A stretch of 46,701 nucleotides of DNA from Escherichia phage YDC107_1, in the sequence record CP025712.1; one strand, given 5' to 3'. A model generated the notes under the pieces. The model searched no databases. It was not told the DNA's origin and saw nothing but the letters and a program-made list of their open reading frames with translations. A program made the position numbers and the translations under genes. Shown in pieces: positions 10,118-46,611 of the stretch. Position 1 is the first letter of the stretch, and every line of letters begins with the position of its first letter.

Positions 10118-10158
10118 GGACTCCTCCACAGAGAGAAAATGGCCCCGAAGGGCCATGA

Positions 10159-22210: not shown

Positions 22211-22522
22211 ATGTTTAACGTGATAACCCACCCTGCAGCACTGGATGAACTGCTTGAACTACCAGATGATTTGCGAGGTCGCATGACCAGATTAATTGAG
22301 CGACTGGAGAAGGAAGGCAACAAACTGAAGATGCCCCATAGCCGTGTAATAGGTGGAGGGCTTTTTGAACTACGAGTAGGGGATAAAAACATCGCAAGAA
22401 CGCTGTACGCCTACGCGACTGGTAACGAAATTTATCTATTGCATGCATTTGTAAAAAAGACACAGAAAACACCGGTGAAGGCTATCGAAATCGCCAGAAC
22501 TCGCCTGAAGGAGATGAACTGA
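22211..22522 (+). CDS. Type II toxin, HigB / Gp49-like (RelE/ParE superfamily)
   Basis: 103 aa with …GGGLFELRVGDKNIARTLYAYATGNEIYLLHAFVKKTQKTP… typical of Gp49/HigB; SD GGAGG; upstream palindrome TTTCACTTTTTAGTGAAA at 22135-22152 is a candidate operator. Confidence 0.8.
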   Translation: MFNVITHPAALDELLELPDDLRGRMTRLIERLEKEGNKLKMPHSRVIGGGLFELRVGDKNIARTLYAYATGNEIYLLHAFVKKTQKTPVKAIEIARTRLKEMN

Positions 22523-22809
22523 TGAAAGCGAAAGGCATCCCGTTTAACGAAGTAAAAGAAAAACTTCTCAACACTCCAGAAGCCATCAAAGGATATGAAG
22601 AGGCCGATAAAGAGCTGGAGATGGTCGAAATGTTATACGAAATGAGGGAAAGAGCAGGTTTAACGAAATCAGCTCTGGCTGAACGAATGGGGTTGCGACC
22701 GTCAGCCATCAGCCGCCTGGAAAGCAATCCTTTAGGGGCAAGTATGAAAACTTTGGCTAAATATGCTCATGCCTGCGGCGCAACCATCGATATTCGCGCT
22801 GTTTATTAA
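22522..22809 (+). CDS. HigA-like HTH (XRE family) antitoxin
   Basis: 95 aa, HTH LTKSALAERMGLRPSAISRLE; start overlaps toxin stop (ATGA). Confidence 0.8.
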   Translation: MKAKGIPFNEVKEKLLNTPEAIKGYEEADKELEMVEMLYEMRERAGLTKSALAERMGLRPSAISRLESNPLGASMKTLAKYAHACGATIDIRAVY

Positions 22810-22851: not shown

Positions 22852-23055
22852 TCAATGATGTGAACGCTCAACAGCGATAGTTTTCTGACAATGCTGGGCA
22901 ATCTCTCGCGACATGTTGATGAGTCGTGAAACCTCACCAATATGTAGGCTGGCTTCTGGAGAAGCCAGGGTGACGCTAACCAGATCCAGAACGGCGTCAA
23001 TATCTCTCAAATTTGAATCGAGTTGTTCAAGAGTTGATACGGCTGCTTCAGACAT
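22852..23055 (-). CDS. Hypothetical small protein
   Basis: 67-aa ORF, weak RBS. Confidence 0.3.
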   Translation of the reverse strand: MSEAAVSTLEQLDSNLRDIDAVLDLVSVTLASPEASLHIGEVSRLINMSREIAQHCQKTIAVERSHH

Positions 23056-23137
23056 TAAATCTCATACCATTTAACTAAAAAAGGTTTTTTATACTGTATA
23101 AAATTACAGGATAAAACTCAAACTTTACGGTCAATTT

Positions 23138-25932: not shown

Positions 25933-26233
25933 TTTCTTGTGCGACCACGGTCGCACCCTCTCTGATTTCCAAGTAACGCTTAATCCAAAGATTTTCTATA
26001 TGCTTATTACCTGGCTGATTTGATAAATACCAATCGGCAATTACAGACTGCTTATTACTATCTGGTCGTGTCCTGTAACCACAAGTTGGACACCAAATAA
26101 CATATTCATTTCTTACCCCCGAATACCTTAATTCTGGCTTCGACGGTTTCCTGAACATAACTTGTTTACAAAGGCAGAATGGCACTTCCTGCCCGATGGC
26201 GTTTGATGATTTCACTGCGCTTCTCCGCCGCAT
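25913..26233 (-). CDS. Hypothetical protein with CxxC zinc-ribbon motif
   Basis: 106-aa ORF with CPTCG; start uncertain. Confidence 0.4.
   Translation of the reverse strand: MRRRSAVKSSNAIGQEVPFCLCKQVMFRKPSKPELRYSGVRNEYVIWCPTCGYRTRPDSNKQSVIADWYLSNQPGNKHIENLWIKRYLEIREGATVVAQENENNAI
25939..25956. repeat. 18-bp palindrome GTGCGACCACGGTCGCAC, copy 4
   Basis: At the junction of two small early genes. Confidence 0.6.
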
Positions 26234-26876
26234 TTAATAATGCGGTTCGATTTAAGCTCAGACATCGCGACTTAATTAAAAGCCAGCGTTCTTTATAATC
26301 TTGTCTCCAGCTATCAATAGATATATTCAGTAGAAAACTCAGATGCCTGTCCTGTTCTCTCTCATCAACTGCCTCAGCACACGTAAGTTCTGATTTAACC
26401 TGTTGTGCCGCGTAATAAATCAATTTCCGCATGGCTTTTTTCGTGGAGGCCTTCATTTTTTTAAAGCCGCCCCCCGAATGAGCAACCAGAAAATCAAGCC
26501 ATAACCACTGACAAACAATCACATCATTGTTGTAATCAGGCTTGCATCCGTAGCAATAATAAAGCCAGGCTGATTCCTCGTTATTCAACTGACCAATAGC
26601 CCTGCGCCAGCTGGCGCTCTGAAAATCAATATCAGTGAGCAACATTGATGATTGTTTAAATGTTTTCCCCTGATGGAATCTAACCGGCTCAGCAGGAACG
26701 GACACTTCGTATGAGTTATCATCCCCCACACTGATTGACCGGACTGGTTTATTGTTAAACCGTCCTGATCTACCGAGACGCATCTGCTCAAGCTGGACCT
26801 CCAGAATGCCACGCTGGCGATAATGAACATCAGCCAATGCCGTAGAGACGCAGCTGCGTATATACTCAAGCTCCAC
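26166..26876 (-). CDS. Hypothetical early protein directly downstream of cro (regulator or Q-like candidate)
   Basis: 236 aa from a GTG start with SD AAGGAG; contains CYGC…C cysteines; family not recognised. Confidence 0.5.
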   Translation of the reverse strand: MELEYIRSCVSTALADVHYRQRGILEVQLEQMRLGRSGRFNNKPVRSISVGDDNSYEVSVPAEPVRFHQGKTFKQSSMLLTDIDFQSASWRRAIGQLNNEESAWLYYCYGCKPDYNNDVIVCQWLWLDFLVAHSGGGFKKMKASTKKAMRKLIYYAAQQVKSELTCAEAVDEREQDRHLSFLLNISIDSWRQDYKERWLLIKSRCLSLNRTALLNAAEKRSEIIKRHRAGSAILPL

Positions 26877-27087
26877 GCTTACGACTCTCCTTAATCGACT
26901 GCTTTACCCGCCGAGTTGTAAAGTCACTCTTCAGCTTATAAGCAGTACGAACTTCAATATCGCTTTGCCGCAATGAAGGAATCTCTCCAGCGGTTAACCA
27001 TTGGTAAACAGCTCCGGGTGTTACACCTACCCCTGCCGCTGCTTTTTCTACACTGCCAAAATGGCGAATAAGTTCTTCTGGTTTCAT
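26866..27087 (-). CDS. cro: Cro-like HTH repressor
   Basis: 73 aa from MKPEELIRHFGSVEKAAAGVGVTPGAVYQWL; divergent from the repressor gene. Confidence 0.7.
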   Translation of the reverse strand: MKPEELIRHFGSVEKAAAGVGVTPGAVYQWLTAGEIPSLRQSDIEVRTAYKLKSDFTTRRVKQSIKESRKRGA

Positions 27088-27118
27088 GTTGTTATTATAA
27101 ACAATAAACAACAATTAA

Positions 27119-27156
27119 AGCCAGCTATAATAAATAAATTTTATAGCCAGCTATAA
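27119..27156. promoter_or_regulatory. Operator region between cro and cB: two AGCCAGCTATAA repeats
   Basis: Repeats at 27119-27130 and 27145-27156; the second lies in the near-palindrome TTATAGCCAGCTATAA; AT-rich promoter context. Confidence 0.5.
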
Positions 27157-27178
27157 GAAGATCATTTATGATTACAGT

Positions 27179-27775
27179 ATGAAAACACGAGGCGAACGAC
27201 TGAAAGCACGCCGTTTAGAGATGAAGCTGACGTTGCGAGAAGTTGCTGAGGCTGTCGATATCTCTATAGCAGGCGTCCAAAACTTAGAACGTGGCGACGT
27301 AATGCCGTCACTGGAGATAGGTATTGCCCTGGCTAAGTGCTTACGCAAGCCAGTGCATTGGGTGCTATATGGGACAGAATATGACCCTGATCGCATTCCT
27401 GTTATTGGCACAACTGAAAGTGGGCCGGATGAAGAGTGGAAGCCGGGACAGGTTCCAAATACTGAGCGATTCCTGCCATTCATCAGCCAGCGCAATACTG
27501 TGTATGCGTTAACTATCAGCAATCTTACGCAGGGAAACTATCAGCCAGGCGATTTTCTCCTGGTCGATTCTGCGCTGGAACTGGTCCCCGGCGAGGATGT
27601 TCTGGTTCGTGATACTGCAGGAAATATCACTATCCAGCGCCTGGCCCGTTTTGATGATGAAAATTACTATCTGGATGGAACAAACTCACAACGCGCCATC
27701 TTCAGGAAAAGCGATCTTGAATTTGTTCACCAAATAGTCGGAACGATCAAATCATTCATGGTTGAGGGTAGATGA
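27179..27775 (+). CDS. cB: Prophage repressor (N15 CB / lambda CI analogue): HTH plus degenerate LexA-like C-terminal domain
   Basis: 198 aa; N-terminal HTH LTLREVAEAVDISIAGVQNLERG. Confidence 0.8.
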   Translation: MKTRGERLKARRLEMKLTLREVAEAVDISIAGVQNLERGDVMPSLEIGIALAKCLRKPVHWVLYGTEYDPDRIPVIGTTESGPDEEWKPGQVPNTERFLPFISQRNTVYALTISNLTQGNYQPGDFLLVDSALELVPGEDVLVRDTAGNITIQRLARFDDENYYLDGTNSQRAIFRKSDLEFVHQIVGTIKSFMVEGR

Positions 27776-27869
27776 CTTAATACGGGGTTTATTGTTTGCT
27801 GTAAATCTGGTTTAATGCAGGGCATATGTTCTGTGGGTTGACTCAGGTTACAGCAGCAGAAAAAAGACG

Positions 27870-27905
27870 AAAAAAAACCCGAGTCGGCAAACTCGGGTCC
27901 TTTTC
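27870..27905. terminator. Bidirectional rho-independent terminator after the repressor gene
   Basis: A-run, CCCGAGT-CGGCAAA-ACTCGGG, then T-run. Confidence 0.5.
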
Positions 27906-28020
27906 AGGAAGCAGCCACAACAACGCGACAGATTCCGTCAATTCAAGATGCGTTTATTGTGGCTGCTCCTGCGGATTTTTTCAACCCGAAAAAACATAAT
28001 TCGCATGGAATGGCTAAAAA

Positions 28021-31000
28021 ATGACATTAAACGATTTCTATGCGGATCGCTTTGGCAGCGATCCGTTCTCGCTAATTGAAGCAGCACGGGATGAACTAAC
28101 CGAGCTGGCACAGATGGCTGGTATCAACTGGCCTGCCTGTTCCGACAACATCCAACTCAACCCTCGCGGGGGGGTTGAGCGTTACTCTTCATACAATAAA
28201 ACATCTCCAGAAGCTCTCGAAAAGAGCCTGAAAGGACGCGTAGAAATTTACTCCAGGCTGGAACACAGCAAAGGGATTGATTACCCGTTCATTAACTTCG
28301 TCCATAAAGGCAGCGATGCTGGCTCATGGAGCGGTTTCTCCTTCCTGTTTTCTGAATATCGCCGTGAGCAACAACGGAATAATGCGACCGTGGTCGCACA
28401 ACCGGAAGAAGAACGGGAAAGAATAGAACGTCAGGCCGAAGCACGTCGTCGCCGTGAAGAACAAAAACGAATTAATGACCTGAAAAACAACCAAATGGAC
28501 CATGAACGTTTGCTGGGATGGCTGGCATTCCACAGCGCGTGGGAACATGCTCAGGCTGAAGACGGCTCATGGCCATATGCGATTAAAAAAGGTATTCGTG
28601 ACGTTTTTAGTTCATGTGATGTGCGTCGCGTGACCAGTCACGACAGTGCGAAATGGAGCCGGGGGCCAACCACATATATGGCTATCCCTCTGGCTCACCT
28701 GGACGGTCGTTATGATGGTCGTATTGTGGGTTGGCAGCGAATCGACAAACAAGGTGGGAAATACCAGACCAGCGCAGTAACCAGCGGCGATTTCGTCGGT
28801 GCCTGCTTTGTTATCGGTGAGCTGAAAGGGGCGCAAAACATCGCTGTTACAGAAGGTTTTGCTACTGGTGCATCCATCTGGCTTGCCACGAAAAAAGATA
28901 AACGCTTTGACGCGGTGGTTGTCGCTGTATCCGCTAACAACATGGTTCATGTTGTGGAACAACTGGTAAACATGTACCCGGCGGCAAAAATCACCTGCGC
29001 ACTGGATAATGACCGGAAATCTGCCACAGAAGGAAAAGGGAATACCGGCCTGCGGACTGGCTATGAAATCTTATCGAAATTCAACGATGTCCGCTGCGTC
29101 TACCCAACTTTTGAAGACGATCCGCAAATGGAGTGCAGTGACTTCAACGACCTGCACAAACTACGTGGACTTCGTGAAACAGCACGTCAACTATTTGCAA
29201 CAGCAAACCGCCTGAAAACCGGCACTGATTTGCTATCTCTGACGCTCAACCGCCTGAAGACAATTAAGCGGGATAACCGTCGTACTTTTGCCAAAGAGCT
29301 GCTGAGAGCGGTGGATATTGGCATGCTAACCTGTCCGGTTCCTAACAGTCCGTCAGATTTGTTTAACATGTTCTGTATCGTTCTGCGTGAAATGGGGCTG
29401 GAAAATATCTATCGCGCTACGGTAAAAGACCACATTGCCCGTCGCCTGAATAAAAAATGCCGTATTGCCCAGGCTCCGCGCTCTTTCAGCGAACGCATAA
29501 CTGATCCCAATAAACGCCCTCAACATATCACCTATAAGCGTTTTGAAACTTCGGTAATGACCTATGACGTCCTGAAGTACGTGCAATCACTACAGGGGAT
29601 CGTCATCGTTCGTGCTGGTATGGGTTCCGGCAAATCTACTGGATTGTTACGACCGTTAATGCATAGCTCAGAACGCGGTATCTCTGTAGCTCACCGTGTT
29701 TCCCTTATTGGTGGCCTGTGGGAAATGATGACTGAAGGAAAAGGTGTAAAAGCCGATATCCTGCACTATCAGGACCCTGGCTATCAGGAAATGGCTCCAT
29801 ACGCCAGTAAACTGACCATCTGCATAAACTCGATTGTTAAAAACTGCTGGCAACCGTTGATGCGCCAGCACGACTATTTTGGCTTTGACGAGGCCACACA
29901 AGGGCTACGTGCCGTTCTTTCCGGTCGGGCTATGGAAAACCCAGTGGCTGTATTCAATACGCTAATTGACGCGCTGGCCAGAACGGAACAACACCCAATA
30001 ATGGTGGATGCTGATGCGAACGATCTGCTGGTTGACCTGGCTGAACTGGCTATGAAACGCCGTGAAGAACTAGGTTTACCGGCATGGCTGCAGATCCACG
30101 TAATTGAATTACCTGTTGATGTTCGCAACCGCGAAACAGGTGAGCCAATCCGGGTTTTTTATACAGAAAAAGATCGCATCATGACCGAGGTGGTGAAAGC
30201 TGTATCGGATGGCGAAAAAATCATGTTGGCCACCGACAGCTCCACCTTTGCAGAAGATGTGACCGCCACCCTGAGAATGCATTTTCCTGGTAAGAAATTT
30301 CTGTGCGTAAACCAGAAAAGCAAACAGGATGAAGAAGTCGATGCTTTTACCAACCAGCCAAAAGTAATGGTGATGAAATACGATGGACTGATCTACAGCC
30401 CGTCGATTTCCTCCGGGGTGTCATTTGAGAAAAAACATTTTGACCGTCATTTCGGCATGTTCTGCGGTGAAGTTGTGCCCAGCGACGCAGTGCAAATGCT
30501 ACGCCGCGACCGTACAGCAAAAGAATTTATTATCGGCTTTGATAAAGCTCGTGCAAAACGCGAGACTGATCCGCAAAAAATAGAACGTGCATTCGCCCAG
30601 GCATTACTTGCTACCGCAGGCATGAACGGTGAACTGACGGATGTCGTTTTCGATGGCGACCGTATATCAATGGGGGTGGCCAATACCGACTTTACCAGGA
30701 TGAAAATTAAAGCTGCCGCTATTGAAGCGTCTGCGCGTAACGACTACGCCAGCAACATGATCTGCATCATGCACAGCGACGGTTATAAGGTATCGCCATT
30801 AGCTACTGATTATGCCGCAAATGATTTTGGTAAAGAGCTGCGCAAAGAAGCGCGGGATATTGTGTGGGAACAGACGCTGGATCTGCACCTCAATACAGAG
30901 ACACCAGAAGAATCAGAGCGTGAAGAACTACTAAAAAAACGTGCGCTAACGCTTGAAGAACAGGCAAAACTTGTCCGCTGGGATATTGAGAACGAACTGA

Positions 31001-32004
31001 AACTACCGGTTGAAGAAGGCACGCTGAAATTCTATTTCGATGGTGCTCGAGACAAAATTCGCCGTTATGAAACGATGCTGCTTGATGAAGTCACAGCCCG
31101 TCGTTATGACCGTGAAGAAGCGGCTATCAATTTTACATACGCATACCGCCAGACCGGACAGTGGCAATATTTTGTGGTGACCGCGATGACACGCGAGCAG
31201 GCTGATGATGTATTCAAAGCGAAATTTCCGGGAATAATCGACTACAAGGTAAAAGCCACCCCAGCTGTTGAGGTCGGCATGCGCGGATTCTATGCGCTTA
31301 AATCAGCAACTCTCCGGCAGTATTTTATCGACTGCGGTATCGACCCTGAAACTATGACTGGCGAAGCGACGCAGGAACGCCTTAAGTTCGCTCGAGATAA
31401 TCTCATGACAGCAGAACGCCGTGACCTGTTGAATAACGTTCTGCGCATTGGTGGTTTTATGACACCAAAAGGGAAGCCTAAAGTGCCGGAAGCACTGTTT
31501 AAAAACATCTGCGACTCTCTCGGCCTAAAAACAGGAAAACGTCGCGGCAGAGATGGCGATAAGCGCCCGACATTGCGTTTTGTTGAGCCTGAGTCTGTAG
31601 CATTTATGCTTGATATTCTTACGCAACGTCAGGAGGACGGTATGACGTTGAAAGCTCGCAAGGCAGAAAAATCAACGACCGAAGTGGATCGCGATTTGTC
31701 ATTAAATATATATATGAATGGTGAAACGCGATCCACAAACACGGAGGAACAGGATCCCCCTCGTTCAGCTATATCACAGGCTTTGGCTGTATTGCCGGTG
31801 GCTGTTCCTGAGTCCTGGGCGATGAGTGCTCTGCCATCAGCCGAACTGGAATCTATCAGGGGGTGGTCAGTTGACAGCATCGCATACACGTTTGCAGCCC
31901 TTTATATGACTGAGTTTATGGATTTGCTGTCCGGTCATGAGATTAAGTTGCTGAAGGCTTTTATAGGCCCACGACATGCCAGCGATGAGTTTTGTGTAGT
32001 TTAG
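28021..32004 (+). CDS. repA: Replication protein: Toprim primase fused to a helicase/NTPase (N15 RepA / P4 alpha-like)
   Basis: 1327 aa; Toprim motifs (VTEGFATGASIW, ALDNDRKSATEGKG); Walker A GMGSGKST; Walker B-like FDEATQ. Confidence 0.9.
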   Translation: MTLNDFYADRFGSDPFSLIEAARDELTELAQMAGINWPACSDNIQLNPRGGVERYSSYNKTSPEALEKSLKGRVEIYSRLEHSKGIDYPFINFVHKGSDAGSWSGFSFLFSEYRREQQRNNATVVAQPEEERERIERQAEARRRREEQKRINDLKNNQMDHERLLGWLAFHSAWEHAQAEDGSWPYAIKKGIRDVFSSCDVRRVTSHDSAKWSRGPTTYMAIPLAHLDGRYDGRIVGWQRIDKQGGKYQTSAVTSGDFVGACFVIGELKGAQNIAVTEGFATGASIWLATKKDKRFDAVVVAVSANNMVHVVEQLVNMYPAAKITCALDNDRKSATEGKGNTGLRTGYEILSKFNDVRCVYPTFEDDPQMECSDFNDLHKLRGLRETARQLFATANRLKTGTDLLSLTLNRLKTIKRDNRRTFAKELLRAVDIGMLTCPVPNSPSDLFNMFCIVLREMGLENIYRATVKDHIARRLNKKCRIAQAPRSFSERITDPNKRPQHITYKRFETSVMTYDVLKYVQSLQGIVIVRAGMGSGKSTGLLRPLMHSSERGISVAHRVSLIGGLWEMMTEGKGVKADILHYQDPGYQEMAPYASKLTICINSIVKNCWQPLMRQHDYFGFDEATQGLRAVLSGRAMENPVAVFNTLIDALARTEQHPIMVDADANDLLVDLAELAMKRREELGLPAWLQIHVIELPVDVRNRETGEPIRVFYTEKDRIMTEVVKAVSDGEKIMLATDSSTFAEDVTATLRMHFPGKKFLCVNQKSKQDEEVDAFTNQPKVMVMKYDGLIYSPSISSGVSFEKKHFDRHFGMFCGEVVPSDAVQMLRRDRTAKEFIIGFDKARAKRETDPQKIERAFAQALLATAGMNGELTDVVFDGDRISMGVANTDFTRMKIKAAAIEASARNDYASNMICIMHSDGYKVSPLATDYAANDFGKELRKEARDIVWEQTLDLHLNTETPEESEREELLKKRALTLEEQAKLVRWDIENELKLPVEEGTLKFYFDGARDKIRRYETMLLDEVTARRYDREEAAINFTYAYRQTGQWQYFVVTAMTREQADDVFKAKFPGIIDYKVKATPAVEVGMRGFYALKSATLRQYFIDCGIDPETMTGEATQERLKFARDNLMTAERRDLLNNVLRIGGFMTPKGKPKVPEALFKNICDSLGLKTGKRRGRDGDKRPTLRFVEPESVAFMLDILTQRQEDGMTLKARKAEKSTTEVDRDLSLNIYMNGETRSTNTEEQDPPRSAISQALAVLPVAVPESWAMSALPSAELESIRGWSVDSIAYTFAALYMTEFMDLLSGHEIKLLKAFIGPRHASDEFCVV
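28383..28398. repeat. 16-bp core TGCGACCGTGGTCGCA, copy 5, inside repA
   Basis: Outer bases not complementary (16 of 18); mirrored copy at 45080-45097. Confidence 0.5.
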
Positions 32005-32021
32005 AGGGTAGAAGCGTGGGA

Positions 32022-32288
32022 ATGATGCAAGAGTGCCTCGTTTTGATTGAAGGGTATGATCCGTATGTTGTTAACGTCAGCAGAATGGATACTGGCTATA
32101 GCGACTACAAAACTGGTCGTGAACTGCCGTTCACCATCATCAGGATGAATAGCTTTGGCGATGATGATGCTGTTTATTGCTGTATAGCCAGCGATAAAAA
32201 CATGGAAGACCGGACAGATGAAGCCCGTATGCTATTGAGGAAATATAAGGTAAAGCCGTTATCAGAGAATAACGCTGAGAGGGGTTAA
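32022..32288 (+). CDS. Hypothetical protein
   Basis: From ATG MMQECLVLIEGYDP (ORF-track start 31992 is TTG). Confidence 0.45.
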   Translation: MMQECLVLIEGYDPYVVNVSRMDTGYSDYKTGRELPFTIIRMNSFGDDDAVYCCIASDKNMEDRTDEARMLLRKYKVKPLSENNAERG

Positions 32289-32290
32289 AA

Positions 32291-32686
32291 ATGGCAGTTC
32301 AATCATACAAATACGAATCCCCTTTGGATAAGGGATACATTCGTATCAAGTTAAGTCGTTCTCAGCATAAGGCTATTTTTAAGGTAAGGAAAATTCGCAT
32401 ATTGGATGCGTATGCGTATTACTACAACGGTGAAAATGTTGTTGTTGAACACTTTCTTGCACGATGGTTTGTAGCTCTGATTTTTGTCCCTCTCCTGTTA
32501 ATTGGTACTTTTGTGGATGGTTTTCCTAGTACATGGCGGGAGATAAAGAAAGGCCTATTCCCGCGTAAGTACGGCAGATTTTCGCAAGATAGCTGGCGAG
32601 TTATACCTGGTAAACATTCTGTGGATGAGCAGCCGATTGTTGATTACTGGTTGAAGCATATGGCTGATGCTAAAAAAGTTGATTGA
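32291..32686 (+). CDS. Hypothetical membrane protein
   Basis: 131 aa with SD GAGAGGGG; TM segment WFVALIFVPLLLIGTFV. Confidence 0.5.
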   Translation: MAVQSYKYESPLDKGYIRIKLSRSQHKAIFKVRKIRILDAYAYYYNGENVVVEHFLARWFVALIFVPLLLIGTFVDGFPSTWREIKKGLFPRKYGRFSQDSWRVIPGKHSVDEQPIVDYWLKHMADAKKVD

Positions 32687-32704
32687 GTTGTGGAAGGAGT
32701 ATTT

Positions 32705-32929
32705 ATGAACTGTAACAAAAATGAAGAAACTCGCCTGGTTTGGACGGTAGTAATCGGAGATAAAGAGGGCGGTGAAGAGCCTCATTTTGATTATTCTGTG
32801 GCTTTGCAGGCTCTCATCCTTGAAGCGCAGAGATACCAACAAGAGATGCAGAAGAACCCTCAACTGGAACCTCGACCAATTGGCCTATTCTGCGAGCGAG
32901 TATCAGCGGCGGAACTCCCTGATATCTGA
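32705..32929 (+). CDS. Hypothetical small acidic protein
   Basis: MNCNKNEETRLVWTVVIG…; SD GGAAGGA. Confidence 0.45.
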   Translation: MNCNKNEETRLVWTVVIGDKEGGEEPHFDYSVALQALILEAQRYQQEMQKNPQLEPRPIGLFCERVSAAELPDI

Positions 32930-33120
32930 TGCCCTCCAACAGCTGATCAGGTTCTGATCAGTTAGTAAAGCAAACTATAAAAACACCTGTCCCCGTGACT
33001 GGTCACGGGGTAAAATGTCTTTGCAAATTATTGACGTGTGCGTCGTTTTGACGGTAAAGTTACTTCGCTGCGGTAAATCCCGTAGCCGGGACTCTCAACC
33101 CCGAAATCCGAACGACGCAC

Positions 33121-33143
33121 AACACGCGCCAGCGTGTTTTTTT
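33121..33143 (+). terminator. Rho-independent terminator ending a short untranslated transcript upstream of the anti-repressor operon
   Basis: AACACGC-GCCA-GCGTGTT followed by a T-run. Confidence 0.45.
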
Positions 33144-33309
33144 GTGTGTATGAGCCTGCGCATATCCGAATTATGGTGGCTCAGGTGGGGCAGCCGAAAG
33201 GCTGGCCGGTGTCGTTTGGGCCGGTGTTGAGAACCCCGCTTGGGCTACCACCCCATAGAGATTCTCAACTCTGGTGGTAGCACTGTTTTACCAAACAAGA
33301 GTGCATACC

Positions 33310-33474
33310 ATGTTCAAATTCAAATTTGCGGCAGTCGTTCGCACAGACAAAAAGTCACACATCCATCATCTTTCCACCATCGCGTCATCTGAACGGGAAG
33401 CTCGTCGCCAGTTCGCCAGCCGGTTTGTCCTGGTATTGTCTGCCCGTATTCCGGTGCGCGAGGTGGCTGCATGA
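33310..33474 (+). CDS. Small protein, first gene of the anti-repressor operon (Icd-like position)
   Basis: 54 aa from MFKFKFAAVVRTDKK. Confidence 0.35.
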   Translation: MFKFKFAAVVRTDKKSHIHHLSTIASSEREARRQFASRFVLVLSARIPVREVAA

Positions 33475-33704
33475 ATCAGGTAAAAATGAACACTGTTGGC
33501 CTGCTGGAATCGTTGGATGAACGTCTGGCTCAGGTCTATGCGCTTGTGTCATCAGCCCATCGTACAGTCTCCAGTTGTGAGGCGTCGATTTATCTCTCAG
33601 AAGCCGGGAAGCTCCTTCAAATCGCGTGTGAGTTGACACACAAAGCACAGGGGTATTCAGCATCTCTCTCGTCGCAATTGCAGCACAATAAGGAGGCCAA
33701 ATGA
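33471..33704 (+). CDS. Hypothetical protein (anti-repressor operon)
   Basis: 77 aa, SD GAGGTGG, ATGA-coupled to neighbours. Confidence 0.45.
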   Translation: MNQVKMNTVGLLESLDERLAQVYALVSSAHRTVSSCEASIYLSEAGKLLQIACELTHKAQGYSASLSSQLQHNKEAK

Positions 33705-34477
33705 GCGCGTTAGCTGTATTTTCGTTTCAGGAAGAGCATCAGGTTCGTGTAGTGATGATTGATAGCGATCCGTGGTTTGTTGCATCTGATGTGTGTATGG
33801 CGGCGGGTATTGATTCTACGGCCATTAGAAAGTTGGATGAGGACGAAAAGGGTCTGCATTTAATGCAGACCCCTGGCGGATACCAGAATGTTTCAATCAT
33901 CAAGGAGTCAGGTCTATACACCCTAATCCTCCGCTGCCGTGACGCGGTGAAGCAAGGCACAACAGCTTGGCGGTTTCGCAAATGGGTAACGAACGAAGTC
34001 TTGCCCTCTATTCGCAAAAATGGAGAGTACGTTTACGTTGAGCCAGAGCCAATGCGAGCAGCAGAGCCGTTGAACTGGAGGCAGAAAGAGTATCTGCGAG
34101 GGCTGATTAACGATATTGCACAAAGTTTTCAATACCGAAATGCCTGGATTAGCGGTGTATGGTTGGCTTTGCGTCGGGCGTGTCGTAATCCATCCCCGAA
34201 CCCCATAACTGTTGATGATTTGCCAGCAATAACGGCAGAACTGCGACGGATTTTGACGGCTGCTGAGTCGGCATTGGGGAACATGCGCACGTATGAACGA
34301 GAGTTGTTGCGTGATGTTGTTCGTGGTGGTAGGCGGAGTATGTCGTGTGGTGATTTGCCCATCACCGATATCAACTCTGATCTGGAAAAGGCGTTACCCG
34401 CGCATTTTGAACTGGCAGTTCAAAAACTTGAGCAGTTGTCCGCGCAGCTAAAGCCAGCAGAAATCACCAATAAATAG
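33701..34477 (+). CDS. ant: Anti-repressor with Bro-N domain
   Basis: 258 aa; N-terminus FSFQEEHQVRVVMIDSDPWFVASDVCMAAGI… typical of Bro-N/Ant; SD AGGAGG. Confidence 0.75.
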   Translation: MSALAVFSFQEEHQVRVVMIDSDPWFVASDVCMAAGIDSTAIRKLDEDEKGLHLMQTPGGYQNVSIIKESGLYTLILRCRDAVKQGTTAWRFRKWVTNEVLPSIRKNGEYVYVEPEPMRAAEPLNWRQKEYLRGLINDIAQSFQYRNAWISGVWLALRRACRNPSPNPITVDDLPAITAELRRILTAAESALGNMRTYERELLRDVVRGGRRSMSCGDLPITDINSDLEKALPAHFELAVQKLEQLSAQLKPAEITNK

Positions 34478-34649
34478 GGTTGGCCAGCCCGAATTGATGC
34501 CCTTCTTAGTGAGGGGAAGCCTCGCAGTCTGGGCGGTGATGTCTGTGGTTGCAGCCGCGTTTCCTCCGTTACTTCTGCCCTTTGCAGGGGGCAGGCGAGG
34601 CAGGCCACATAACAAGGCACCGATTAATTCGGTGCCTTTAACGTATGCT

Positions 34650-36551
34650 TTAGCCGAAATATGTCAGCCATGCTAACTGCATTGCTGACATGGGGCTGTT
34701 TGCACTGCCTGACCACGCATAATTCTGGCCATTATAATGAAACTCAACAACGTATGAGCCATCACCAATATTTCTCACAGGCTTAAATACCGGCTTAGAT
34801 ACAGGTGAAGAAGGCGCGGGCGGTTGCTGTTCTTCTACGCTCTCTTCCTCTTCCTCTTCCTCTTCCTCTATCTCAATTTCGTCGTCATCCAGATCGTCAT
34901 CCTCTGATAATTCATCCGTCTGTTCAGGTATTGCTTCCAGCTCTTCTTCGTCAGGCATAACGATTTCTGGAGAATCTATTTTCAGCTGCCATTGTCCATT
35001 TTCGCCAACAAATTGCCCCAGAGCATCAGCAGCAAATTCCAGGTATCGACTAATCATTGTAGGGCTAAATTTGAATGCTCTTAGAGTGCTGTTCGTGATT
35101 TTTATAGAGGGGTCATGCTCTACCAGCTGCTTAACTGTGTTATGCAGACGAACCCCGGCATCTCCTCTGGCGAATCCTGGCATTTCGTCATCAAGCTGCT
35201 GCAATGCTTCCAGCCTGGTATTTTCGTTTCCAGTATTTGGCCTCCATGTCTTTGAGAAGTTGGCCAGCTTGAATTGCTTATAGTGTAATTGAGTGTTTTC
35301 ATCGTCATGGCCTAAAATTTCCATAAAGAAAACATCCTCATCTACGTTTTTCCAACGAGGATCTACGCGGAAAAACATTTCATACGCAATACGGGCATAA
35401 ATAGCACGACTATCTTTATAAACACGGCGGTCATCTTTGAAAAATGATTTAACCCACGGGTTAAAAGCCTTTGCTAATATGGCATTAATCCGTCCGTTTT
35501 CAGAGCGTGTGTCGTTATCTCCATAACCTTTAACGACATCATCAAAATCAGATGCTGCCGGGCATGAGCGAAGTACATTTATTAAATAAACAAATGTTTT
35601 TGCTTCGCATAATGTATATATTTTTCTGGTTATATCATCAGAAGTTCTTTTTTTTGCTTGGCCTAAAAAATCAACGGTATACTTACCAGAAACAGTAAAT
35701 GTACCTTGATACATAATCTCAATCATTCGTCTTCCTGACAATGCAGCAAGTGCAAATGCCAAAGGAGCCATACCTGAACGAGTGTTTAGATTATTTAATG
35801 TAGCAGGGCTATTTATAATATCGTAAATAGCTTGCATATATTTAGGGTAATCAATGACCACCACGTTACGTTTCTTATTGTGCAGAACGTCTGCCCATCG
35901 TTGCTGGATAGATGCGCGTTCGGCAGGGCTTAGTTGAAGATGATAGAGAATCTCATGGTTAACTTTTAGCTGATTCAACTCCTCAAGCAAGGCAGATCCT
36001 TGCTGTAGTAATTTATATAAATAATCGCGCTTATCTTTCCAGTTATCGCTAGTTAAATCAGAAATGGCGAATTGCCACTCTTTATATTTATTTGATAATT
36101 TTAATAACTTATTATGACTTTTGTTATCACCAATTCTGATATTAGATAAATCTTCTGATAAAGGGAGAATTAATTTTAATTTTGCCTGTAAAGCTGACAT
36201 TCTCTGGCGAATATCGGCAGCAGGTAGAGAAAGCCATGACAATAGCTCCTCATTATATAAAGGATACTTTTCAGATAGGCGATGTATATTTTTTTCAAAG
36301 CTATGATGAAGTTTATCATCAAACCGTTTTCTGGCCCTGCTCATATAGGTATTGAATGTGTTGGCTGTAATTCTTTTTTCTAATCCTTTCCCCCTAAACT
36401 TTCGCTTGTCATTAAATAATGCATTTTTAAACTTTAATGCAACAGCCTTTATTTTTTTTGTTTTCTCCCCTTGAGGACGGTCAGAGTTATCTATTGACTC
36501 AACATCGCTAACAAGTGAGTTTATTAATTCACCGATTTTTACTTTGCTCAT
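34650..36551 (-). CDS. telN: Protelomerase (TelN-like telomere resolvase)
   Basis: 633 aa; N-terminus MSKVKIGELINSLVSDVESIDNSDRPQGEKTKKIK… and length resemble N15 TelN as I recall; acidic C-terminal stretch; start 190 bp from the telRL-like palindrome. Confidence 0.88.
   Translation of the reverse strand: MSKVKIGELINSLVSDVESIDNSDRPQGEKTKKIKAVALKFKNALFNDKRKFRGKGLEKRITANTFNTYMSRARKRFDDKLHHSFEKNIHRLSEKYPLYNEELLSWLSLPAADIRQRMSALQAKLKLILPLSEDLSNIRIGDNKSHNKLLKLSNKYKEWQFAISDLTSDNWKDKRDYLYKLLQQGSALLEELNQLKVNHEILYHLQLSPAERASIQQRWADVLHNKKRNVVVIDYPKYMQAIYDIINSPATLNNLNTRSGMAPLAFALAALSGRRMIEIMYQGTFTVSGKYTVDFLGQAKKRTSDDITRKIYTLCEAKTFVYLINVLRSCPAASDFDDVVKGYGDNDTRSENGRINAILAKAFNPWVKSFFKDDRRVYKDSRAIYARIAYEMFFRVDPRWKNVDEDVFFMEILGHDDENTQLHYKQFKLANFSKTWRPNTGNENTRLEALQQLDDEMPGFARGDAGVRLHNTVKQLVEHDPSIKITNSTLRAFKFSPTMISRYLEFAADALGQFVGENGQWQLKIDSPEIVMPDEEELEAIPEQTDELSEDDDLDDDEIEIEEEEEEEEESVEEQQPPAPSSPVSKPVFKPVRNIGDGSYVVEFHYNGQNYAWSGSANSPMSAMQLAWLTYFG
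34842..34868. repeat. (CTCTTC)n hexanucleotide repeat inside telN, encoding a poly-Glu tract
   Basis: Four and a half tandem CTCTTC units; mirrored at about 38616-38642. Confidence 0.6.
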
Positions 36552-36714
36552 CTTTCCTCTCCTGATTATCCGCTCGGATTATCGTAACACAATTTGAGAA
36601 TAAGATAACTAATAACGCGTTAACTTAGGCACAAACTAACAGAACACAATAACGGATAATAAATAAAAACACAATATCGGAACGTTAAAATTTGTTCCTT
36701 GACTTTGTTCTGAA

Positions 36715-36770
36715 AATCAGCACATAATTTCCCATTATACGCGCGTATAATGGGAAATTATGTGCTGATT
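36715..36770. other. telRL-like telomere resolution site; centre of dyad symmetry between 36742 and 36743
   Basis: AATCAGCACATAATTT-CCCATTATACGCGCGTATAATGGG-AAATTATGTGCTGATT, same architecture as N15 telRL as I recall. Confidence 0.8.
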
Positions 36771-36933
36771 TTCAGAACAAAGTCAAGGAACAAATTTTAA
36801 CGTTCCGATATTGTGTTTTTATTTATTATCCGTTATTGTGTTCTGTTAGTTTGTGCCTAAGTTAACGCGTTATTAGTTATCTTATTCTCAAATTGTGTTA
36901 CGATAATCCGAGCGGATAATCAGGAGAGGAAAG

Positions 36934-38833
36934 ATGAGCAAAGTAAAAATCGGTGAATTAATAAACTCACTTGTTAGCGATGTTGAGTCAATAGATAACT
37001 CTGACCGTCCTCAAGGGGAGAAAACAAAAAAAATAAAGGCTGTTGCATTAAAGTTTAAAAATGCATTATTTAATGACAAGCGAAAGTTTAGGGGGAAAGG
37101 ATTAGAAAAAGAATTACAGCCAACACATTCAATACCTATATGAGCAGGGCCAGAAAACGGTTTGATGATAAACTTCATCATAGCTTTGAAAAAAATATAC
37201 ATCGCCTATCTGAAAAGTATCCTTTATATAATGAGGAGCTATTGTCATGGCTTTCTCTACCTGCTGCCGATATTCGCCAGAGAATGTCAGCTTTACAGGC
37301 AAAATTAAAATTAATTCTCCCTTTATCAGAAGATTTATCTAATATCAGAATTGGTGATAACAAAAGTCATAATAAGTTATTAAAATTATCAATAAATATA
37401 AAGAGTGGCAATTCGCCATTTCTGATTTAACTAGCGATAACTGGAAAGATAAGCGCGATTATTTATATAAATTACTACAGCAAGGATCTGCCTTGCTTGA
37501 GGAGTTGAATCAGCTAAAAGTTAACCATGAGATTCTCTATCATCTTCAACTAAGCCCTGCCGAACGCGCATCTATCCAGCAACGATGGGCAGACGTTCTG
37601 CACAATAAGAAACGTAACGTGGTGGTCATTGATTACCCTAAATATATGCAAGCTATTTACGATATTATAAATAGCCCTGCTACATTAAATAATCTAAACA
37701 CTCGTTCAGGTATGGCTCCTTTGGCATTTGCACTTGCTGCATTGTCAGGAAGACGAATGATTGAGATTATGTATCAAGGTACATTTACTGTTTCTGGTAA
37801 GTATACCGTTGATTTTTTAGGCCAAGCAAAAAAAAGAACTTCTGATGATATAACCAGAAAAATATATACATTATGCGAAGCAAAAACATTTGTTTATTTA
37901 ATAAATGTACTTCGCTCATGCCCGGCAGCATCTGATTTTGATGATGTCGTTAAAGGTTATGGAGATAACGACACACGCTCTGAAAACGGACGGATTAATG
38001 CCATATTAGCAAAGGCTTTTAACCCGTGGGTTAAATCATTTTTCAAAGATGACCGCCGTGTTTATAAAGATAGTCGTGCTATTTATGCCCGTATTGCGTA
38101 TGAAATGTTTTTCCGCGTAGATCCTCGTTGGAAAAACGTAGATGAGGATGTTTTCTTTATGGAAATTTTAGGCCATGACGATGAAAACACTCAATTACAC
38201 TATAAGCAATTCAAGCTGGCCAACTTCTCAAAGACATGGAGGCCAAATACTGGAAACGAAAATACCAGGCTGGAAGCATTGCAGCAGCTTGATGACGAAA
38301 TGCCAGGATTCGCCAGAGGAGATGCCGGGGTTCGTCTGCATAACACAGTTAAGCAGCTGGTAGAGCATGACCCCTCTATAAAAATCACGAACAGCACTCT
38401 AAGAGCATTCAAATTTAGCCCTACAATGATTAGTCGATACCTGGAATTTGCTGCTGATGCTCTGGGGCAATTTGTTGGCGAAAATGGACAATGGCAGCTG
38501 AAAATAGATTCTCCAGAAATCGTTATGCCTGACGAAGAAGAGCTGGAAGCAATACCTGAACAGACGGATGAATTATCAGAGGATGACGATCTGGATGACG
38601 ACGAAATTGAGATAGAGGAAGAGGAAGAGGAAGAGGAAGAGAGCGTAGAAGAACAGCAACCGCCCGCGCCTTCTTCACCTGTATCTAAGCCGGTATTTAA
38701 GCCTGTGAGAAATATTGGTGATGGCTCATACGTTGTTGAGTTTCATTATAATGGCCAGAATTATGCGTGGTCAGGCAGTGCAAACAGCCCCATGTCAGCA
38801 ATGCAGTTAGCATGGCTGACATATTTCGGCTAA
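36934..38833 (+). pseudogene. Mirror copy of telN, broken by two 1-bp homopolymer contractions
   Basis: ORF fragments 36934..37143, 37140..37430 and 37493..38833; first break is A6 to A5 at about 37107. Confidence 0.7.
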
Positions 38834-39005
38834 AGCATACGTTAAAGGCACCGAATTAATCGGTGCCTTGTTATGTGGCCTGCCTCGCCTGCCCCCTGCA
38901 AAGGGCAGAAGTAACGGAGGAAACGCGGCTGCAACCACAGACATCACCGCCCAGACTGCGAGGCTTCCCCTCACTAAGAAGGGCATCAATTCGGGCTGGC
39001 CAACC

Positions 39006-39782: not shown

Positions 39783-40012
39783 TTGGCCTCCTTATTGTGC
39801 TGCAATTGCGACGAGAGAGATGCTGAATACCCCTGTGCTTTGTGTGTCAACTCACACGCGATTTGAAGGAGCTTCCCGGCTTCTGAGAGATAAATCGACG
39901 CCTCACAACTGGAGACTGTACGATGGGCTGATGACACAAGCGCATAGACCTGAGCCAGACGTTCATCCAACGATTCCAGCAGGCCAACAGTGTTCATTTT
40001 TACCTGATTCAT
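39779..40012 (-). CDS. Mirror copy of the 77-aa anti-repressor-operon gene
   Basis: Identical translation to 33471..33704. Confidence 0.4.
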   Translation of the reverse strand: MNQVKMNTVGLLESLDERLAQVYALVSSAHRTVSSCEASIYLSEAGKLLQIACELTHKAQGYSASLSSQLQHNKEAK

Positions 40013-40173
40013 GCAGCCACCTCGCGCACCGGAATACGGGCAGACAATACCAGGACAAACCGGCTGGCGAACTGGCGACGAGCTTCCCGTTCAGATGACG
40101 CGATGGTGGAAAGATGATGGATGTGTGACTTTTTGTCTGTGCGAACGACTGCCGCAAATTTGAATTTGAACAT
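40009..40173 (-). CDS. Mirror copy of the Icd-position small gene
   Basis: Identical translation to 33310..33474. Confidence 0.3.
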   Translation of the reverse strand: MFKFKFAAVVRTDKKSHIHHLSTIASSEREARRQFASRFVLVLSARIPVREVAA

Positions 40174-40778: not shown

Positions 40779-40796
40779 AAATACTCCTTCCACAAC

Positions 40797-41191: not shown

Positions 41192-41193
41192 TT

Positions 41194-41460: not shown

Positions 41461-41477
41461 TCCCACGCTTCTACCCT

Positions 41478-45703: not shown

Positions 45704-46299
45704 TCATCTACCCTCAACCATGAATGATTTGATCGTTCCGACTATTTGGTGAACAAATTCAAGATCGCTTTTCCTGAAGATGGCGCGTTGTGAGTTTGTT
45801 CCATCCAGATAGTAATTTTCATCATCAAAACGGGCCAGGCGCTGGATAGTGATATTTCCTGCAGTATCACGAACCAGAACATCCTCGCCGGGGACCAGTT
45901 CCAGCGCAGAATCGACCAGGAGAAAATCGCCTGGCTGATAGTTTCCCTGCGTAAGATTGCTGATAGTTAACGCATACACAGTATTGCGCTGGCTGATGAA
46001 TGGCAGGAATCGCTCAGTATTTGGAACCTGTCCCGGCTTCCACTCTTCATCCGGCCCACTTTCAGTTGTGCCAATAACAGGAATGCGATCAGGGTCATAT
46101 TCTGTCCATATAGCACCCAATGCACTGGCTTGCGTAAGCACTTAGCCAGGGCAATACCTATCTCCAGTGACGGCATTACGTCGCCACGTTCTAAGTTTTG
46201 GACGCCTGCTATAGAGATATCGACAGCCTCAGCAACTTCTCGCAACGTCAGCTTCATCTCTAAACGGCGTGCTTTCAGTCGTTCGCCTCGTGTTTTCAT
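45704..46299 (-). pseudogene. Mirror copy of the cB repressor gene, frameshifted
   Basis: GGG to GG contraction; fragments 45704..46141 and 45967..46299. Confidence 0.65.
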
Positions 46300-46389
46300 A
46301 CTGTAATCATAAATGATCTTCTTATAGCTGGCTATAAAATTTATTTATTATAGCTGGCTTTAATTGTTGTTTATTGTTTATAATAACAA

Positions 46390-46611
46390 CATGAACCAGA
46401 AGAACTTATTCGCCATTTTGGCAGTGTAGAAAAAGCAGCGGCAGGGGTAGGTGTAACACCCGGAGCTGTTTACCAATGGTTAACCGCTGGAGAGATTCCT
46501 TCATTGCGGCAAAGCGATATTGAAGTTCGTACTGCTTATAAGCTGAAGAGTGACTTTACAACTCGGCGGGTAAAGCAGTCGATTAAGGAGAGTCGTAAGC
46601 GTGGAGCTTGA
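46390..46611 (+). pseudogene. Mirror copy of cro, frameshifted in the fourth codon
   Basis: ATGAAACCAG becomes ATGAACCAG, giving a stop after 12 codons. Confidence 0.6.

Follow-up and report, generated by a model that had tools for sequence, protein, structure and literature searches.

The cB-cro immunity locus of the N15-like plasmid-prophage YDC107_1 and its probable route of induction

Escherichia phage YDC107_1 (CP025712.1) carries a repressor gene and a cro-like gene in divergent orientation around a short spacer with repeated sequence, and an earlier note, made from the letters alone, doubted that this repressor can cleave itself. How, then, would DNA damage throw the switch? We addressed this question in the window, by which we mean the whole stretch of 46,701 nucleotides that was analyzed. 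We conclude with high confidence that the switch belongs to an N15-like linear plasmid-prophage of E. coli, in which it forms the primary immunity locus (immB), and that the CB repressor is silenced via a LexA-controlled, antC-like route. The lysis/lysogeny switch itself (cB, cro, Q, and operators) is of the ordinary, already well-studied N15 type, and the importance of the locus beyond annotation is little. RefSeq labels the regulators of this E. coli phage-plasmid lineage only as "XRE family" or "Cro/CI family," and the anti-repressor genes as "hypothetical protein"; transferring what is known of N15 and phiKO2 supplies operator coordinates, the start codons that are probably the real ones, and an induction pathway that can be tested, running from LexA through AntC to CB.

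Gene order and operators of the switch

The nearest database records are N15-type phages (97% DNA identity to PhiR46_1, 76 to 79% to N15 and phiKO2), and the E. coli RefSeq matches all lie on plasmids (21 of 21). Synteny with N15 holds gene by gene for Q, Cro, CB, RepA, Icd, AntA, AntB, TelN, and AntC, and repA, telN, and a telomere palindrome supply the context of a linear-plasmid prophage. Open reading frames, Pfam matches, and identity to N15 gp38, gp39, and gp40 place cB and cro in divergent orientation with Q directly downstream of cro, overlapping its end by 11 nt, so the immunity switch proposed in the earlier note stands, with a P22_Cro protein on the minus strand and an HTH_3 protein on the plus strand.

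26166..26876, minus strand: Q late-gene antiterminator (Pfam Phage_antiter_Q, 4e-84; 67% identity to N15 gp40)
26866..27087, minus strand: cro, 73 aa (Pfam P22_Cro, 1.7e-22; 87% identity to N15 gp39)
27092..27107: operator OR1, TTATTATAAACAATAA, at the aligned position of N15 OR1, TTATTATAATCAATAA, with 1 mismatch
27115..27130: operator OR2, TTAAAGCCAGCTATAA, first 12-mer copy, aligned with N15 OR2, TTAAAGCTAGGTATAA, and phiKO2 OR2, TTAAAGCCAGGTATAA
27141..27156: operator OR3, TTATAGCCAGCTATAA, second 12-mer copy, identical to the annotated N15 OR3
27167..27172, plus strand: TATGAT, -10-like hexamer (promoter scan), at the position of the -10 annotated in N15 U45242
27179..27775, plus strand: cB prophage repressor, 198 aa (78% identity to N15 CB; HTH_3, 3.3e-11)
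27789..27804: operator OL2, TTATTGTTTGCTGTAA, upstream of repA, aligned with the annotated N15 site TTATTGCTGACTATAA
27812..27827: operator OL1, TTAATGCAGGGCATAT, aligned with the annotated N15 OL1, TTAATCCGATCTATAC
27870..27905: conserved hairpin terminator in the repA leader (terminator scan; invariant alignment block)
28021..32004, plus strand: repA primase/helicase, ORF of 1327 aa (76% identity to N15 gp37)
34650..36551, minus strand: telN protelomerase (77% identity to N15 TelN)
36719..36766: telomere palindrome, centre 36742/36743, CCCATTATACGCGCGTATAATGGG
45704..46611: inverted second copy of the whole switch, within a 9,959-nt fold-back

In the second copy of the switch, cro and cB contain homopolymer deletions of 1 nt. 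The fold-back is probably read-through of the hairpin at 36742/36743. The terminator in the repA leader is annotated as bidirectional in the N15 and phiKO2 records. One locus, Kpn74 L007, was left out of the alignments on account of an apparent rearrangement.

The start of cro sets the size of the spacer. The first in-frame start, TTG 27114, would give a protein of 82 aa; positions 27088-27114 are not alignable in frame among relatives, and Cro matches the N15 Cro structure 2HIN (2.2e-32) from residue 1 of the shorter form (MKPEEL...). By this comparison ATG 27087 is most likely the cro start, and TTG 27114 is probably not used. The intergenic region is then 91 bp (27088-27178) when measured from the conserved ATG, and the 64 bp given in the earlier note, which presupposed the TTG, has to be replaced. 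On the other side, the upstream ATG annotated for cB in N15 is not in frame in this sequence, and CB accordingly begins with MKTRGE. The cro and cB transcripts are predicted to be leaderless, starting at 27087 and 27179.

The spacer contains two plus-strand copies of the 12-mer AGCCAGCTATAA (27119-27130 and 27145-27156), 26 bp apart from start to start, as first noticed from the letters, and the second copy lies in the 16-bp near-palindrome TTATAGCCAGCTATAA, also as first described. Each 12-mer forms the right-hand portion of a 16-bp operator, the first of OR2 and the second of OR3; in OR3, two 7-bp arms of perfect complementarity flank a 2-bp centre. With OR1, this makes three 16-bp OR operators (TA-N10-TA) between cB and cro, aligned with the annotated N15 OR1-3, and all five operators fall exactly on protein_bind features of U45242 with the same spacings (23/26/23 bp), the OL2-OL1 distance of 23 bp included. 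The suggestion that the repeats are repressor operators is thus upheld by the match to the N15 and phiKO2 sites; the count was too low, OR1, OL2, and OL1 having been overlooked. The operator motif is strongly over-represented (11 matches against 1.46 expected; 10 against 0.22), and the search recovered OL2 with 3 mismatches. Operator-like 16-mers also occur at 32182-32197 and 32965-32980, the latter just upstream of the immA promoter.

Could the 12-mer be repeated by chance duplication, or because overlapping promoters are rich in AT, rather than as a protein-binding site? The spacer is indeed AT-rich and holds promoter-like hexamers: a TATAAT on the plus strand (27126-27131) overlaps OR2, and a perfect TATAAT on the minus strand (27099-27094) lies inside OR1, 6 nt before the cro ATG. 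Against this reading, the window contains four copies of the 12-mer where 0.02 are expected by chance, the remaining two belonging to the inverted duplicate of the switch region, and experiments in N15 and phiKO2 have mapped operators at these same sites. Moreover, OR3 is invariant in six relatives while its flanks vary, and the half-site TATAGC persists in the operators of a relative with 42% identity. We regard a nonbinding origin of the repeat as so improbable as to be negligible.

The operators therefore remain the preferred reading of the repeat. In phiKO2, CB binds OR1-3 and OL1-2, and Cro binds OR3 only (PMC4997575). By analogy, CB dimers in the lysogen would bind OR1-OR3 (TTA-N10-TAA type, 16 bp) in the 91-bp spacer, turning off the leftward cro-Q transcript and regulating cB itself, and CB on OL2 and OL1 before repA, the replication gene that it would control through OL, would hold plasmid copy number down. 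The TATGAT hexamer, 6 nt before the cB ATG, has a -35 partner (TAGCCA) inside OR3 and would function as the cB -10 element.

The C-terminal domain of CB

A direct PDB sequence search with CB returned only HTH domains and marginal UmuD matches, and a fold search was therefore needed to place its C-terminal domain. The AF2 model of CB (pLDDT 86.5) matched 186 CI, lambda CI, LexA, and UmuD' in Foldseek, with 186 CI as the best structural match and a Foldseek probability of 1.00 for lambda CI, LexA, and UmuD'. Profile comparison of the domain with LexA/UmuD/CI gave an hhalign probability of 86.6%, and the Pfam Peptidase_S24 match was sub-threshold (21.3 bits against a cut-off of 23.3). The LexA/S24-like outline seen by eye in the sequence is borne out by these matches. 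The domain is about 74% identical to that of N15 CB (hand count from the alignment).

The catalytic residues were then compared by alignment. In hhalign, LexA K156 (CI K192) pairs with CB Gln153, and this column is Q, Y, F, M, L, or G in 22 of 23 homologues, with K in one distant member only. No G-x-S-M serine nucleophile was found in CB in the alignments, which included the family of 23 homologues, and there was no conserved Ser column among those 23. Which CB residue stands at the Ser position depends on the alignment (N115, L116, or T117): hhalign and the family alignment set LexA S119 opposite T117, Asn115 is the residue implied by the UmuD' match in phmmer, and a four-sequence MAFFT alignment places Ser119 opposite Thr107. 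Because of this variation, the argument about the dyad rests on the unambiguous replacement of Lys by Gln and on the lack of a conserved Ser column. At the scissile site, LexA A84-G85 pairs with CB Ser81-Gly82 (hhalign); of the 23 homologues, 20 have Ser/Thr-Gly there, and the distant homologue P0054 alone has Ala-Gly.

CB thus keeps the C-terminal fold of LexA and lambda CI, but the Ser nucleophile, the Lys base, and the Ala-Gly site are gone, and with all three absent, RecA-stimulated self-cleavage is not expected. The dyad that could not be found by eye is missing by alignment as well, and the doubt about autocleavage raised in the earlier note proved well founded, the more so as ciprofloxacin did not lead to proteolysis of the N15 repressor (PMC10432266). 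The CB proteins of N15 and phiKO2 are likewise described as having neither the RecA cleavage site nor the Ser/Lys residues (PMC4997575).

Routes of induction

The repressor would accordingly have to be silenced by another protein, and two loci in the window encode candidate anti-repressors.

22852..23055, minus strand: antC-like small anti-repressor, 67 aa (56% identity to the unannotated N15 ORF 39619-39807)
23094..23109: LexA box, CTGTATAAAATTACAG, an exact CTGT-N8-ACAG 38 nt upstream of the antC-like ATG
33067-33142, plus strand: isrK-like RNA in the immA leader (Rfam RF01394, 54.9 bits, above the gathering score)
33169-33255, plus strand: C4-type antisense RNA, equivalent of N15 cA (Rfam RF01695, 71.8 bits, above the gathering score)
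33310-33474, plus strand: icd-like ORF, from its ATG (94% identity to N15 gp32)
33471-33704, plus strand: antA (62% identity to N15 gp31; PHROG anti-repressor family)
33701-34477, plus strand: antB (74% identity to N15 gp30; Bro-N, 1.2e-16; PHROG anti-repressor family)

The antC-like gene and the telomere lie on opposite sides of the switch, the gene at a distance of 4 kb from it. Its product belongs to PHROG 6301 (1.8e-35) and matches PHROG 10889, "anti-repressor" (6e-08); the database clusters of this protein, the N15 ORF, and antA are all named "hypothetical protein." From its position, LexA box, and PHROG family, we infer that the ORF is antC. Exact CTGT-N8-ACAG occurs only twice in the window, at 4701 and 23094, and is not rare by itself (0.63 expected per window). 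The LexA box and the small ORF are conserved in five relatives, and the box keeps its position in N15, KpLi5, and MStein and, with 1 mismatch, in phiKO2. A simple promoter scan found no sigma-70 promoter before the ORF.

In three papers, N15 AntC is described as a LexA-controlled anti-repressor (PMC3121763, PMC4488713, PMC11652158), and in two of these, LexA control of AntC and the inactivation of CB by AntC are attributed there to Mardanov & Ravin 2007 (PMC3121763, PMC4488713). CB here is, by analogy, most likely switched off in the same manner. After DNA damage, host LexA would leave the box before the antC-like gene (22852-23055), and the antC-like product would bind and inactivate CB, which is itself not expected to be cleaved during SOS. 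Cro on OR3 would then turn cB off, and Q would antiterminate late transcription. This account assumes that CB and AntC are specific partners here, with CB 78% and AntC only 56% identical to their N15 counterparts; more generally, we take it that the binding, non-cleavage, and AntC properties of N15 and phiKO2 would carry over to a 78%-identical relative.

Two other routes of induction can be set against this one. CB might still self-cleave on RecA* through non-canonical residues, with Thr117 or Ser114, for example, acting as nucleophile and some other residue as base: both its S24 fold and the strand that corresponds to the cleavage-site region of LexA (PVIGTTxSGP) are well conserved, hhalign places Thr117 opposite LexA Ser119, and P0054 has a complete Ser-Lys dyad. 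Yet N15-type CBs carry Ile or Val at residue 117, the Lys position is variable across the family as well as Gln in CB, Ser/Thr-Gly replaces Ala-Gly, the S24 score is under the Pfam cut-off, and the N15 repressor was shown to be unproteolysed under SOS (PMC10432266), all of which makes such cleavage very improbable. The earlier note had proposed that induction depends on the anti-repressor operon near the telomere (icd-antA-antB, 33274-34477). An anti-repressor is indeed likely, and several observations speak for this operon: both ant genes belong to anti-repressor families of PHROG, a Bro-N domain is present in antB, AntA shares PHROG 6301 with the antC-like protein and so probably acts on CB too, and N15 immA has been described as an anti-immunity system (PMC4488713). 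However, neither exact LexA box of the window is near the immA promoter, the C4-type and isrK-like RNAs that precede the genes point to RNA control in the style of P1 immI, and the N15 literature assigns SOS induction to the separate gene antC (PMC3121763, PMC4488713, PMC11652158). The operon is an improbable route of DNA-damage induction, if somewhat less so than self-cleavage, and the antC-like gene at 22852-23055 remains the better candidate.

The telomere-proximal operon (33067-34477; leader 33067..33255, genes 33274..34477) is instead a separate anti-immunity system (C4-RNA/icd/antA/antB) under RNA control, in which antA would be a second anti-repressor controlled by the C4-type antisense RNA. 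AntA and the antC-like protein did not align in BLASTP; each has a match to PHROG 6301 at about 1e-35, and 52 aa of the two can be aligned locally without gaps. We treat them as probable distant paralogues.

Relation to known switches

Compared with N15 immB (GenBank U45242; Lobocka et al. 1996), gene order, orientation, the five 16-bp operators with their spacings, OR3, the repA-leader terminator, and the telomere-phage context (repA, telN, palindrome) are alike, and CB, Cro, and Q are 78, 87, and 67% identical. The operators differ from those of N15 at 2 positions in OR2, 1 in OR1, 6 in OL1, and 4 in OL2. OR2 here is 1 mismatch from OR3, and the exact 12-mer repeat arises from this. The phiKO2 switch (Hammerl et al. 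2016, PMC4997575) has the same layout, an identical OR3, and a CB that also lacks Ser/Lys and the RecA site; it differs in overall sequence (about 79% DNA identity) and in OR2 (GGTATAA there, GCTATAA here).

Lambda CI/Cro is similar in that the repressor and cro genes diverge from a spacer with three operators, Q lies downstream, and the repressor has an HTH and an S24-fold C-terminal domain. In contrast to lambda, the operators are 16 rather than 17 bp, Cro is of the P22_Cro family, and CB lacks the catalytic Ser, Lys, and Ala-Gly site of the S24 self-cleavers. The combination of an uncleavable repressor with a small LexA-box anti-repressor outside the immunity region, apparently the arrangement here, is known from N15 AntC, 186 Tum, and Gifsy GfoA/GftA (PMC3121763); in the searches run, the antC-like protein had no detectable similarity to Tum or GfoA. 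The immA operon resembles P1 immI and N15 immA in its order of C4 RNA (RF01695), icd-like ORF, and anti-repressor genes; it is a neighboring system outside the switch coordinates and adjoins telN and the hairpin telomere.

Within one repressor family, the 42%-identical relative has the Ala-Gly/Ser/Lys set, and the N15 clade has LexA-controlled anti-repressors without the set; the CB family thus illustrates the replacement of self-cleavage induction by anti-repression. For the dyad-intact relative (locus L011), tblastn for AntA and AntC and a search for a LexA box found neither in the 10.7 kb covered of its 17.9-kb contig.

In a lambda-type switch, the same three operators are contested by CI and Cro, each filling them in the reverse order of the other, whereas the Cro of phiKO2 binds a single one. 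With OR2 here only one base away from OR3, it is conceivable, though unlikely, that Cro occupies both OR2 and OR3, repressing its own promoter, and that CB binds the 16-mers at 32182-32197 and 32965-32980. If true, the former would make the switch more lambda-like than that of N15 or phiKO2, and the latter could tie CB directly to the anti-immunity operon.

Gene content and identity of the switch

We identified the switch region (26866-27775) as the immB locus, that is, the primary immunity locus (cB-cro-Q), of an N15-like linear plasmid-prophage. The earlier note had read it as an immunity switch with divergent cro-like and cB-like genes, and both the Pfam families and the synteny with N15 immB bear this out. 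The main features, with protein identities to N15, are as follows.

cro, 26866-27775 region, minus strand: Pfam P22_Cro (1.7e-22), 87% identity
cB, 26866-27775 region, plus strand: 198-aa repressor CB, N-terminal HTH_3 (3.3e-11), Peptidase_S24 sub-threshold (21.3 bits against the Pfam cut-off of 23.3), 78% identity
Q, directly downstream of cro with an 11-nt overlap: lambda-Q-type antiterminator (Pfam 4e-84), 67% identity
Telomere palindrome CCCATTATACGCGCGTATAATGGG, centre 36742/36743

In a gene-by-gene comparison, synteny with N15 was complete; RepA, the Icd-like protein, AntB, and the protelomerase TelN are 76%, 94%, 74%, and 77% identical to their N15 counterparts, respectively. Among phage records, Escherichia phage PhiR46_1 comes closest (97% across 1.5 kb); matches at 76-79% were to N15, phiKO2, and several relatives from Klebsiella and Enterobacter. 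The 910-bp region was found in 18 of 5,426 complete E. coli genomes, plasmid-borne every time, and five of these copies are 100% identical. Switches of this type are well characterised, and RefSeq already contains identical copies. Inside cB, on the minus strand, is an antisense ORF of 116 aa (27172-27522). U45242, the N15 record, lists the equivalent ORF as "unknown", and nothing indicates that the window ORF is a genuine gene.

The window folds back at the telomere palindrome: 36743-46701 (9,959 nt) is the reverse complement of 26776-36742 (9,967 nt), and the only differences between the arms are eight single-base deletions, each falling in a homopolymer run of the second arm. An inverted second copy of the switch, in which cro and cB are frameshifted, therefore appears at 45704-46611. 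The fold-back is most likely an assembly artefact, produced by error-prone long-read read-through of a hairpin telomere, rather than biology. Among the 15 E. coli plasmid records listed, three contain the immunity region twice.

Operators, start codons, and promoters

The 12-mer AGCCAGCTATAA occurs at 27119-27130 and 27145-27156, 26 bp apart, as the earlier note described. Because these positions were confirmed and the window holds four copies (two of them in the inverted duplicate of the region) against 0.02 expected, the repeat is real and far beyond chance. The first copy lies within TTAAAGCCAGCTATAA and the second within TTATAGCCAGCTATAA, the 16-bp near-palindrome already noticed, which has 7-bp perfect arms and a 2-bp centre. 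Our reference annotation was GenBank U45242 (N15 immB), which places three of its CB-binding operators in the cro-cB spacer and the other two before repA. In an alignment of six relatives, the window sites fall exactly on these operators; the two repeats seen by eye stand as OR2 and OR3, but the count is five, with OR1, OL2, and OL1 having been missed.

OR1, 27092-27107: TTATTATAAACAATAA, one change relative to N15
OR2, 27115-27130: TTAAAGCCAGCTATAA, two changes relative to N15
OR3, 27141-27156: TTATAGCCAGCTATAA, identical to N15 and invariant in all six relatives
OL2, 27789-27804: TTATTGTTTGCTGTAA, aligned with the annotated N15 site, four changes
OL1, 27812-27827: TTAATGCAGGGCATAT, aligned with the annotated N15 site, six changes

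Operator spacings (23, 26, and 23 bp) are the same in N15 and the window, and the TA-N10-TA frame described for this operator family is kept in all five window operators. OR2 reads GCTATAA in this element but GGTATAA in N15 and phiKO2; the exact 12-mer repeat, as judged from this difference, is therefore a feature of this lineage.

N15 and phiKO2 each have five 16-bp operators; N15 CB binds all five, phiKO2 CB binds OR1-3, OL1-2, and even the N15 operators, and phiKO2 Cro binds OR3 only (PMC4997575). Given the conserved operators and a nearly unchanged CB recognition helix (GVQNLERG), we infer that CB binds likewise here. CB on OR1-3 and OL1-2 would repress cro-Q, regulate cB, and limit repA, as shown in N15 and phiKO2, and Cro on OR3 would turn cB off, as has been shown in phiKO2.

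The 64-bp spacer proposed previously depends on the first in-frame TTG (27114) and probably does not hold. Since the N15 Cro crystal structure matches the ATG-27087 product from its first residue (2.2e-32) and the 27 nt at 27088-27114 bear an indel in the alignment of relatives, cro most likely starts at 27087, giving a spacer of 91 bp. In the N15 annotation, cB begins at an ATG farther upstream (MIKGMKTRGE). The corresponding ATG in the window, at 27168, lies out of frame and reaches a stop; the conserved cB start is therefore MKTRGE, at 27179. Six nucleotides ahead of the cro ATG, inside OR1, the minus strand carries a perfect TATAAT (TATAAT-AACAAC-ATG). The plus strand has a -10-like TATGAT at the same distance from the cB ATG (TATGAT-TACAGT-ATG), with a -35 partner, TAGCCA, in OR3. 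Both -10 positions match putative promoter signals of the N15 record, and these hexamers suggest that the cro and cB transcripts are leaderless or nearly so.

Two additional operator-like sites were observed. The 16-mer GTATAGCCAGCGATAA (32182-32197), within a gp36-like ORF just past repA, has two mismatches to OR3; by chance, the unique 36.7 kb should contain about 0.02 such matches, and N15 lacks the site. The non-coding stretch at 32940-33020, upstream of the immA promoter, is sharply conserved and holds two CTGATCAG palindromes, each with GATC, together with the operator-like GTAAAGCAAACTATAA (32965-32980) and the hairpin CCCCGTGACTGGTCACGGGG. N15, phiKO2, and KpLi5 share this block with little or no change between diverged flanks, and GTAAAGCAAACTATAA has diverged in phage 48ST307. 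The two operator-like sites may be functional, and the OR3-like OR2 may alter Cro occupancy.

The C-terminal domain of CB

We set a profile built from 19 homologues of CB against LexA, UmuD, and lambda CI. CB residues 73-191 align to LexA 76-197 (probability 86.6%), and the AlphaFold model of CB (mean pLDDT 86.5) matches phage 186 CI, lambda CI, LexA, and UmuD' with a Foldseek probability of 1.00. The S24 fold is present. The catalytic Ser-Lys dyad, which could not be found by eye, is indeed missing: Gln153 stands opposite LexA Lys156 and CI Lys192 in every alignment made, and there is no conserved Ser column, the LexA Ser119 position falling on Thr117, Leu116, or Asn115 depending on gap placement. 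CB Ser81-Gly82 lies opposite the scissile Ala84-Gly85 of LexA.

Among 23 homologues, the Lys column holds Q, Y, F, M, L, or G, save in the distant P0054 (42% identical), and the candidate Ser columns vary (N15-type CBs have Ile or Val at 117). P0054 is the only member with Ala-Gly, GDSM, and VKRL. Because these columns are unconserved and only this distant relative is intact, the dyad has been lost throughout the N15 clade, and the pattern suggests that self-cleavage was lost there from a cleaving ancestor. P0054 is encoded at 10001-10606 of its locus (L011) in the same cB/cro/Q layout, and the intergenic region is 9918-10000; the operators of this locus, GTATAGCTAGCTATAC and GTATAGTTTACTATAA, are built on the TATAGC half-site, as in the window. 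We found no AntA/AntC homologue or LexA box near P0054 in the 10.7 kb examined.

These results agree with Hammerl et al. 2016 (PMC4997575), according to whom the essential Ser and Lys residues, and likewise a RecA cleavage site, "were not detected in CB of phiKO2 and N15". In-gel labelling found the N15 repressor to be non-proteolytic under ciprofloxacin (Silpe et al. 2023, PMC10432266). With the same residues absent, the CB encoded here would be unable to cleave itself.

SOS induction and the anti-repressor genes

The earlier note had looked to the anti-repressor operon near the telomere for induction. That operon is the counterpart of N15 immA, an RNA-controlled anti-immunity system, and is not the SOS link: exact CTGT-N8-ACAG searches returned only two matches in the window and none at this operon. 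The control RNAs are followed by an icd-like ORF, antA, and antB (a Bro-N protein), in that order.

isrK-like leader, 33067-33142: Rfam isrK, 54.9 bits
C4-type antisense RNA, 33169-33255: Rfam, 71.8 bits

RNA control of this secondary immunity locus resembles that of P1 immI. The immA operon probably also acts on CB, and by homology it would provide a second, RNA-gated source of anti-repressor.

Published work ascribes N15 induction to AntC, an anti-repressor that is under LexA control and is encoded apart from immA and immB (PMC3121763, PMC4488713, PMC11652158). The window has a candidate counterpart.

antC-like ORF, 22852-23055, minus strand: 67 aa
Predicted LexA box CTGTATAAAATTACAG, 23094-23109: 38 nt upstream of this ORF

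The ORF shares 56% identity with an N15 ORF that lacks annotation (39619-39807) and is preceded by CTGTGTTTATATACAG; box and ORF are kept in phiKO2 (one box mismatch), KpLi5, and MStein. The product of the antC-like ORF falls in PHROG 6301 and the "anti-repressor" PHROG 10889. The same two families take in the 77-aa protein of the antA homologue (33471-33704); despite the shared PHROG 6301, the two proteins show no BLASTP similarity. We call the ORF antC-like because of its LexA box, N15 counterpart, and PHROG family. As reported for N15, SOS would release LexA from the antC box and AntC would inactivate CB; box and ORF point to the same route here, and antC, not the telomere-proximal operon, is the likely SOS link.

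The antC-like and AntA proteins (56% and 62% identical to N15) are among the least conserved, and CB is about 74% identical to N15 in its C-terminal domain against about 85% in its HTH domain. This pattern is compatible with co-evolution of the repressor and its anti-repressors. Directly adjoining the antC-like gene, on the opposite strand, is a toxin-antitoxin-like two-gene module (22211-22809; Gp49/DUF891, HigB-like, plus HTH_3) in the position of N15 genes 49 and 48.
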